A stretch of DNA of 32,000 nt from positions 360,001 to 392,000 of the forward strand of contig CP188087.1 of assembly GCA_049942775.1 (NCBI GenBank), written 5' to 3'. The position numbers and the translations under genes were made by a program. This DNA is from Candidatus Saccharimonadota bacterium (GTDB lineage Bacteria; Pseudomonadota; Gammaproteobacteria; Enterobacterales; Enterobacteriaceae). The notes under the pieces were generated by a model, which saw only the letters and a program-made list of their open reading frames with translations, was not told where the DNA came from and ran no database searches. Below, piece after piece: positions 250-1,597 of the stretch; the first letter of the stretch is position 1, and each line of letters starts with the position of its first letter.

Positions 250-1597
250 ATGTTTAATTCAATTGCACAACGACTAGCTCAAACTATAAGGAATATTTCC
301 AATAAGGGAAGAATCACAGAAAAAAATATAGAAGACACACTTAGAGAAATTAGAAAATCTTTTTTAGAAGCAGATGTTTCTTTTCCTGTAATAAAAAAAT
401 TCATAGAATCTAGTAAAAAAAAAATAATTGGAAAAAACATTAATAATAATCTAACTCCAGGTCAAGAATTTTTAAAAATAATTAAAAACGAATTAATAAG
501 TTTTATGGAAGATAAAAATAATACACTTAATTTTTCAAAAAAAGGATTATCAGTATTTTTGTTTGTTGGACAACAAGGAGTAGGAAAAACTACTACAGTA
601 GGAAAAATTGGAAAATTTATTAAAAAAAAAAAAAAAAAAAAAAAAAAATATATTAATTACATCTACTGATGTTTATCGAGCAGCTGCGATAAAACAATTA
701 GAAATTTTATCTAAAAAAATAAAAATTGATTTTTTTCCCTCAAAAAACACACAAAAACCAATAGAAATCGCAAAATCTGCAATAAGTCATGCAAAAAAAA
801 GAAACTATGATTTAATCTTAATAGATACAGCAGGAAGATTACACGTTGATGAACATATGATTTCTGAAATCAAAGAAATGCACGAAGTTGTTAGTCCTAA
901 CGAAACATTATTCATTGTTGATGCAATGATGGGTCAAGATTCAATAAATGTAGCTAAAAAATTTAATCAAACAATACCTTTGTCTGGAATTATTTTAACA
1001 AAAATTGATAGTGATGCTAGAGGTGGAGCAGCTTTGTCAGTAAAGTATGTCGTAGGAAAAGCTATAAAATTTATAGGGACTGGAGAAAAATTAAGTGATA
1101 TTGAATTATTTAATCCTAAAAAAATGGCTTGTAAAATTTTAGGAATGGAAACTACTTTATCAATTATAAAAGATATTGAAAACAAAATTAATTTATCTAA
1201 AGCAAAAAAATTAAATGAAACAATTAAAACTCAAAAAAATTTTAACTTAAATCATTTTTTAATACAAATTAGAGAAATAAAAAATTTTGATGGAATATTT
1301 AATTTACTAAACAAAATTAGTAGAAGAAATATTTTATCTAATCAAATGAATACTAACTTTGATAAAAAAACATTTAAAAAAATAGAATCGATAATTAACT
1401 CAATGACTGAAAAAGAAAAAAATAATCCAGAAATTATAAAAGGATCGAGAAAAAAAAGAATTGCTAAAGGATCAGGAACAAAAACAAACGAAGTAAATAA
1501 AGTTTTAAAACAATTTGAAGAAGTAAAAAAAATGATGAAAAAAATAAAAAACAAAAGCTTTAGTAAAATTATAAACAATATTAAAAATCTTTTTTGA
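250..1597 (+). CDS. ffh: Signal recognition particle protein Ffh (SRP54-type GTPase); the reading frame changes (+1) inside an A27 tract at 622..648
   Basis: ORFs 250..669 and 608..1597 are together colinear with E. coli Ffh. Matches include the N-terminus MF..RL...RNISNKGRITE, P-loop GQQGVGKTTTVGK, DTAGRLH, LTKIDSDARGGAALS, and M-domain PEIIKGSRKKRIAKGSG. The combined length of about 450 aa compares with 453 aa in E. coli. Confidence 0.93.
622..648 (+). repeat. Poly(A) homopolymer, 27 nt, inside ffh
   Basis: Counted directly from the sequence: [35 protein letters not shown] A at 622..648. Confidence 0.9.

Follow-up and report, generated by a model that had tools for sequence, protein, structure and literature searches.

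Frameshifts in poly(A) tracts that are rescued by slippage were described in Buchnera and Blochmannia by Tamas et al. (2008) and Wernegreen et al. (2010), as those studies are cited in PMC3017870 and PMC5009743. For frameshifted endosymbiont genes the corrected transcripts were put at 12-50% (PMC5009743) or ~30% (PMC3017870), and the reported endosymbiont tracts measure ~9-12 nt ("as long as 12 bp", PMC3017870). A eukaryotic case with a 28-A tract reached 40% shifting (PMC5009743). Insertions dominate at A/T runs in Buchnera transcripts, at a rate that rises exponentially with run length, and Traverse and Ochman saw no Buchnera frame restored by a transcription error (PMC5574713). Ribosomes of E. 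coli slide out of frame on runs of at least 11 A's (Koutmou et al., 2015, PMC4363877).

The DNA analyzed here (the window, a stretch of 32,000 nt) comes from Buchnera aphidicola of Tetraneura sorini, strain TS (CP188087, 533,871 bp; PMC12243488). The organism has 22% GC, and A makes up 43.6% of the window. When species-representative genomes were scanned, the nearest relative was Buchnera aphidicola of Tetraneura akinire (CP188088, 94%). As deposited, the essential SRP gene ffh is put out of frame by a run of 27 A's. In this it resembles the class described by Tamas and Wernegreen: a single indel in a long homopolymer breaks a gene that is otherwise intact and under purifying selection, in the AT-rich, reduced genome of an endosymbiont, which is the sequence pattern set out by Tamas et al. 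(2008). As with dnaX, dnaG and pth of Blochmannia vafer, an information-processing or essential gene is hit (PMC3017870). The tracts of that class are ~9-12 nt long, however, whereas those of the ffh clade are 20-29 nt. In addition, the earlier frameshifts had been verified at the DNA level and some are shared by more than one species, whereas the ffh length is taken from the record alone and the relatives are in frame; the conservation across populations or species reported by Wernegreen et al. (2010) is not found at ffh. If real, the ffh break falls in the known poly(A)-frameshift class, and what is new is the gene and the length of its tract (20-29 versus ~12 nt).

Other systems share some of these features. 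The ribosome sliding seen in E. coli likewise involves iterated AAA codons in runs of A11 or longer, with exit in any frame, but it was recorded as a loss of reporter output, unlike the rescue of a frameshifted essential gene. Phase-variable homopolymer loci are known in Haemophilus, Neisseria and Campylobacter, where they are non-essential surface or restriction genes that undergo adaptive switching. Like ffh, these loci have a slippage-prone mononucleotide run in coding sequence that is in or out of frame between close lineages. Unlike them, ffh is an essential housekeeping gene, shows no sign of being switched adaptively, and belongs to a symbiont that is clonal and vertically inherited. 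Homopolymer errors of Nanopore sequencing are also similar to what is seen at ffh, given the 42x long-read consensus, the 75-nt polishing, the position of the break at the longest homopolymer and two other discrepancies in the window. In contrast to a pure Nanopore artefact, the ffh tract itself is real, with at least 20 A's in Illumina k-mers, and A20 was spanned in two other samples.

The ffh gene and the frame break in the record

The 5' part of ffh (250..621, forward strand) encodes the N domain and the beginning of the G domain, P-loop (GQQGVGKTT) included, and extends to ...GKIGKFI. It is followed by A27 in the record (622..648, forward strand), for which the exact length is provisional; this tract encodes a poly-Lys loop that links the G1 helix to the following strand. 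In the 0 frame, translation continues through YINYIY (649..669, forward strand) to a premature TGA at 667..669, and the first ORF (250..669, 139 aa) has the C-terminus ...GKTTTVGKIGKFI-K9-YINYIY. The 3' part lies in the +1 frame (647..1597, forward strand, with the stop TGA at 1595..1597). It begins N-ILITSTDVYRAAAIKQLE... and encodes the remainder of the G domain, with the DTAGR and TKxD motifs, followed by the M domain; the ORF that carries it (608..1597) reads ...K8-NILITSTDVYRAAAIKQLE... The two parts are supported by ORFs, Pfam and dN/dS, with an alignment in addition for the 3' part, and the 0-frame tail by its translation.

The first ORF contains SRP54_N (Pfam E=3.5e-18) and positions 2-31 of the SRP54 GTPase profile, and the second contains the remaining GTPase domain (Pfam E=4.7e-61) and SRP_SPB, the M domain (E=2.8e-27). 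Replacement of A27 by A26, A29, A23 or A20 yields a single ORF of 448, 449, 447 or 446 aa, respectively. The repaired protein spans all three Pfam domains end to end (PF02881; PF00448, positions 2-195/196; PF02978, 1-91/91). It has the N bundle, the GTPase with G1-G5 motifs and the C-terminal M domain that define the SRP54/Ffh family, and is 50-94% identical to annotated Ffh proteins. A27 is the sole lesion of the gene in the deposited sequence, with no second one in 1.3 kb. Thus, much of the first-pass annotation, made from the DNA letters and their translations, stands: it had named the gene as ffh, placed A27 at 622..648 before a stop at 667..669 with the continuation in the +1 frame, calculated that 3n+2 A's (A26 or A29) would restore one Ffh, and described both halves as otherwise intact. 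This confirms A27 as written in the window, not as the exact length in the DNA of the organism.

Counts of A runs in the window drop steadily from A8 (51 runs) to A14 (2 runs) and then leap to 26 and 27. One A14 lies at 27983..27996. Only ~6e-6 runs of A27 are expected by chance in 32 kb (0.436^27 x 32000). Given this expectation and the gap in run lengths between A14 and A26/A27, we rejected a chance origin of the tract from base composition. Rfam and tRNA scans of the window recovered five tRNAs only, all of them away from ffh, and detected no SRP RNA. The 139-aa 5' ORF had no identical record in an exact look-up, and the first 124 aa followed by one to ten lysines had no exact match in the collection; the Illumina contig upstream of the tract was therefore not recovered.

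Selection on the gene was evaluated by comparison with T. akinire. The dN/dS is 0.19 for ffh as a whole, with 0.15 for the part before the tract and 0.19 for the part after it, as expected for purifying selection of the kind that marks the class of Tamas et al. (2008). When T. ulmi is taken as the outgroup, 14 synonymous and 9 non-synonymous codon changes fall on the branch of the window, compared with 9 synonymous and 10 non-synonymous changes on the T. akinire branch, on which the gene is in frame. Decayed pseudogenes carry several lesions and have dN/dS near 1. The value of 0.19, similar in both halves, and the single lesion rule out a decayed pseudogene, in agreement with the view taken at first pass that the gene did not look like one. 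These substitution patterns indicate that ffh is a live gene and is not decaying.

The tract in related symbionts

In ten other gammaproteobacterial and Buchnera Ffh proteins, the aligned loop from GKF[IL] to [IV]L[IV]xS always has 7 residues (e.g., K-E-K-H-K-K-K). The Buchnera of Pterocomma reads CAAAATAAATATAAAAAAAAAATA at the tract position. In T. ulmi (OZ060366) the tract is A6-C-A15, which encodes KKQKKKK and is in frame. A clean A20, also in frame (KKKKKKN, 446 aa), is spanned in two independent Illumina assemblies of T. akinire-like samples (SRR14373458 and SRR7186529), and the Sapporo T. akinire genome has A29 in ffh with an annotated intact protein of 449 aa. The two T. akinire sequences are 99.1% identical, and their sole within-gene indel is the 9 nt in the ffh tract. 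All of A6CA15, A20 and A29 are 3n+2 in effect, and ffh is one intact chain in all of the Buchnera relatives retrieved.

The long ffh tract is real and is specific to the Tetraneura-Buchnera clade. As sequenced, every tract allele besides that of the window reads in frame. Because the Nanopore pipeline behind A27 also produced the A29 of T. akinire, that length is equally uncertain, and only A20 and A6CA15 were measured reliably; thus, the in-frame state of the relatives is firmly carried only by these two. A comparison of the tract in sister strains had been proposed with the first-pass annotation, and its outcome is divided: the long A runs recur (A20, A29 and the interrupted A6CA15), but the frame break does not, as all of these are in frame.

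The alleles point clearly to a history in which a lysine-rich loop became a pure A run and then a slippage hotspot. AT-biased mutation would have homogenized the codons of the lysine-rich loop, giving A6-C-A15 as in T. ulmi and then pure A20 as in T. akinire. In the samples of T. sorini and of Sapporo T. akinire, replication slippage would then have brought the tract into the high twenties.

The clade also has very long A runs in other coding sequences. In T. sorini the N-terminus of corC, at the end of Illumina contig L090 and downstream of the window, is encoded with a run of at least A20, compared with A17 in T. ulmi. At the C-terminus of bolA, T. ulmi carries A26 (L084, 5667..5692) and T. 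akinire carries A10; the region around 17540 of L089 was noted together with these sites. Thus, tracts of A17-A29 are recurrent in these genomes.

The deposited record and the Illumina-only assembly

The long reads for CP188087, run SRR32628561, were generated on ONT FLO-MIN111 (Nanopore R10.3), called with Guppy 4.2.3, and reached 42x depth; assembly with miniasm and Racon was followed by three rounds of Pilon with 75-nt paired NextSeq reads (PMC12243488). The kit for the polishing library is named as "TruSeq RNA Library Prep Kit" (PMC12243488). If the polishing reads are cDNA-derived, the Pilon-polished lengths of genic homopolymers would mirror mRNA, including slippage products, rather than DNA. 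In our judgement, Nanopore data with 75-nt polishing are unable to set a 27-nt homopolymer to within 1-2 nt. Because A27 derives from a 42x Nanopore R10.3 consensus and 75-nt reads from a PCR-amplified library, we distrust its length. The genome announcement lists 32 pseudogenes for strain TS (PMC12243488), and the companion bioRxiv paper makes no mention of ffh or of pseudogenes.

The Illumina run of strain TS is SRR33632137 (assigned to CP188087 in Table 1 of PMC12243488), and a Logan contig from this run, L001, is identical to window positions 629..4165. Illumina-only contigs of the run cover ~28.5 of the 32 kb: besides L001, these are L092 (6928..11190), L091 (11229..23853), L093 (23824..28009) and L090 (27984 onward). 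They match the window at all bases save in two places, pyrG and 6948..6973. Near 16391, in pyrG, the record is without 16 nt (AATTAGATCCTTATAT, within the conserved KLDPYINIDPG motif), and this gap splits the gene into ORFs of 67 aa (16274..16477) and 455 aa (16507..17874). Contig L091 carries the 16 nt and encodes an intact PyrG of 538 aa. Either the assembly is wrong at this gap or a minor haplotype was deposited. The second place is an "A26" between rluD and bamD (6948..6973), which is A9-TG-A15 in L092, with equal total length; T. ulmi has A8 only at this site. Contig L092 starts at the first 31-mer that holds the G of A9-TG-A15. Thus, at two odd features open to checking, both contradicted by the Illumina-only contigs, the record is wrong or the sample is mixed.

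The ffh tract is not spanned by the Illumina-only assembly. Contig L001 begins inside it with 20 A's, and Illumina k-mers of the T. sorini sample have at least 20 uninterrupted A's abutting TATATT. The independent assembly thus breaks within the tract, where it might have confirmed an out-of-frame length. We discounted the 20 A's of L001 as evidence for an A20 allele, as L090 also ends with exactly 20 A's at another tract, and the same count at two tracts points to the limit of a k=31 assembly. The ends of L001, L090 and L092 may reflect either this graph limit or reads of mixed length or mixed haplotype. Look-ups with trmD and rpsP recovered L001 only, and no Nanopore-derived contig of the sample that covers ffh. 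All 120 other A/T runs of 8-13 nt within ORFs of the window keep the frame, which indicates that polishing was good for runs of up to 13 nt.

An out-of-frame tract in prfB and readings of the ffh break

The window includes a second gene with an out-of-frame A run. The prfB gene retains the canonical programmed +1 site (GGAGG, then CTT TGA T, 29930..29944), but the post-shift frame encodes DYKVKKKN and then a stop, and the long downstream ORF (to 30963) shares the frame of the pre-shift CTT TGA. An A12 tract is located at 29953..29964, and the main ORF requires A13 or A10. With the programmed shift and A13, prfB would encode a 365-aa RF2 that is identical to the RF2 of T. ulmi, where prfB is canonical, at 311 of 365 positions. 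A12 was recovered from both species, in the Illumina contig of T. sorini and in four T. akinire datasets, five in all; the T. akinire data include a contig derived from Nanopore reads and two unrelated runs. The frameshift is conserved across species in the manner described by Wernegreen et al. (2010), and the dN/dS of prfB between T. sorini and T. akinire is 0.085. As read from these assemblies, prfB is an essential gene in which a verified and conserved poly(A) frameshift is added to a programmed one. It fits the Tamas and Wernegreen class much better than does ffh, and is the more secure and arguably the more interesting result. The A12 tract implies that the clade lives with slippage-dependent expression, and for this reason a role for slippage at ffh stays credible.

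We consider it somewhat probable that the A27 frame break is a miscount of an in-frame modal length (A26 or A29, with a loop of 9 or 10 residues) or reflects a mixed-length population. This explanation is favored by the sequencing method, which is error-prone at such tracts, by the discrepancies at pyrG and the "A26", and by the relatives, which are in frame; the second assembly does not cover the ffh tract from end to end. Against a miscount, the deposited sequence itself reads A27, the 120 shorter A/T runs in ORFs are all in frame, and the clade tolerates a real out-of-frame poly(A) tract in prfB. The first-pass annotation had offered slippage or a mis-called homopolymer as alternatives. That framing was right, and a miscount is at least about as likely as a true frameshift rescued by slippage, which now has a precedent in prfB. 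If A27 is a miscount, the case is still a warning that pseudogene counts in Nanopore-based endosymbiont assemblies include artefacts, of which pyrG is one, and coding runs of at least 20 A's that vary by whole codons still exist in the Buchnera of Tetraneura.

It is possible, although we think it rather less than probable, that the modal tract is truly out of frame (A27 or A28) and that ffh functions via RNA polymerase slippage, with 3n+2 transcripts giving full-length Ffh. To this may be added, equally tentatively, ribosome sliding on poly(A) and a minority of in-frame genome copies in a polyploid symbiont; the mechanism would be that of Tamas et al. (2008) at an extreme length. Such rescue takes the deposited sequence literally and is consistent with an otherwise intact gene under purifying selection, with correct polishing of runs up to A13, with the verified out-of-frame A12 of prfB in T. 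sorini and its sister (dN/dS 0.085), and with published slippage rates (PMC5009743, PMC3017870, PMC5574713, PMC4363877). However, the record, from which the exact length cannot be verified, disagrees with the Illumina-only contigs at two further places in the window, the relatives do not share the frameshift (with A20, A29 and A6CA15 they are in frame), and no frame-restoring transcription error was found in Buchnera (PMC5574713). If the break is real, an essential protein-targeting gene would be wholly reliant on transcriptional or translational infidelity, through a tract more than twice as long as any documented for such rescue. It would then provide a natural test for the limits of error-based gene expression in degenerate genomes.

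The consequences for expression may be similar for all of the long alleles. A basic surface loop of Ffh has become a very long, length-unstable poly(A) run, and on a run of >20 A's slippage of RNA polymerase and sliding of ribosomes would make the pools of transcript and protein mixed. Only part of the products would be full-length Ffh, and the frame encoded in DNA would matter less than usual. We infer that any allele of 20-29 A's would give such a mixed product pool. A stronger form of this idea, which we regard as unlikely though worth stating, is that above ~20 A's the DNA frame is irrelevant: slippage, sliding and length heteroplasmy would give a similar minority of full-length Ffh from each allele, and the tract would drift through all frames (A20, A27, A29). 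If so, an essential SRP gene would be expressed whatever frame the DNA encodes.

There is very little probability, in our view, that ffh was inactivated very recently by a one-base slip and is a young pseudogene without further damage. The frame break in the record and the 32 pseudogenes announced for strain TS (PMC12243488) fit such an origin, and homopolymer indels are the usual first step of erosion in Buchnera (PMC3017870, PMC5574713). However, ffh is intact in all of the Buchnera relatives retrieved and has no second lesion in 1.3 kb. Constraint is not relaxed, as the 14 synonymous and 9 non-synonymous changes contrast with a ratio of ~4:1 non-synonymous to synonymous if changes were neutral. 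Moreover, at least one apparent pseudogene of strain TS, pyrG, is not supported by the Illumina-only assembly.

Still more improbable is a split Ffh, in which one polypeptide would carry the N domain and P-loop and another, made from an internal start, the remaining G domain and the M domain, and the two would reassemble: the second ORF has a possible TTG at 608, but this codon sits in conserved upstream coding sequence with no evident ribosome-binding site, Ffh is one chain in all relatives, and we rejected a split gene because the break falls inside the GTPase fold, right after the G1 helix. A programmed ribosomal frameshift site in ffh was rejected as well, because the orthologues are single-frame and in frame and the homopolymer is the only "signal".

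The window also includes a divided polA (22755..25376). Two in-frame TAA codons (23649 and 23655) separate a 298-aa ORF for the 5'-3' exonuclease from a 571-aa Klenow-like ORF. The Klenow part is open only in T. sorini, with no open stretch >100 codons there in T. akinire and T. ulmi. The split in T. sorini is confirmed by Illumina contig L091.
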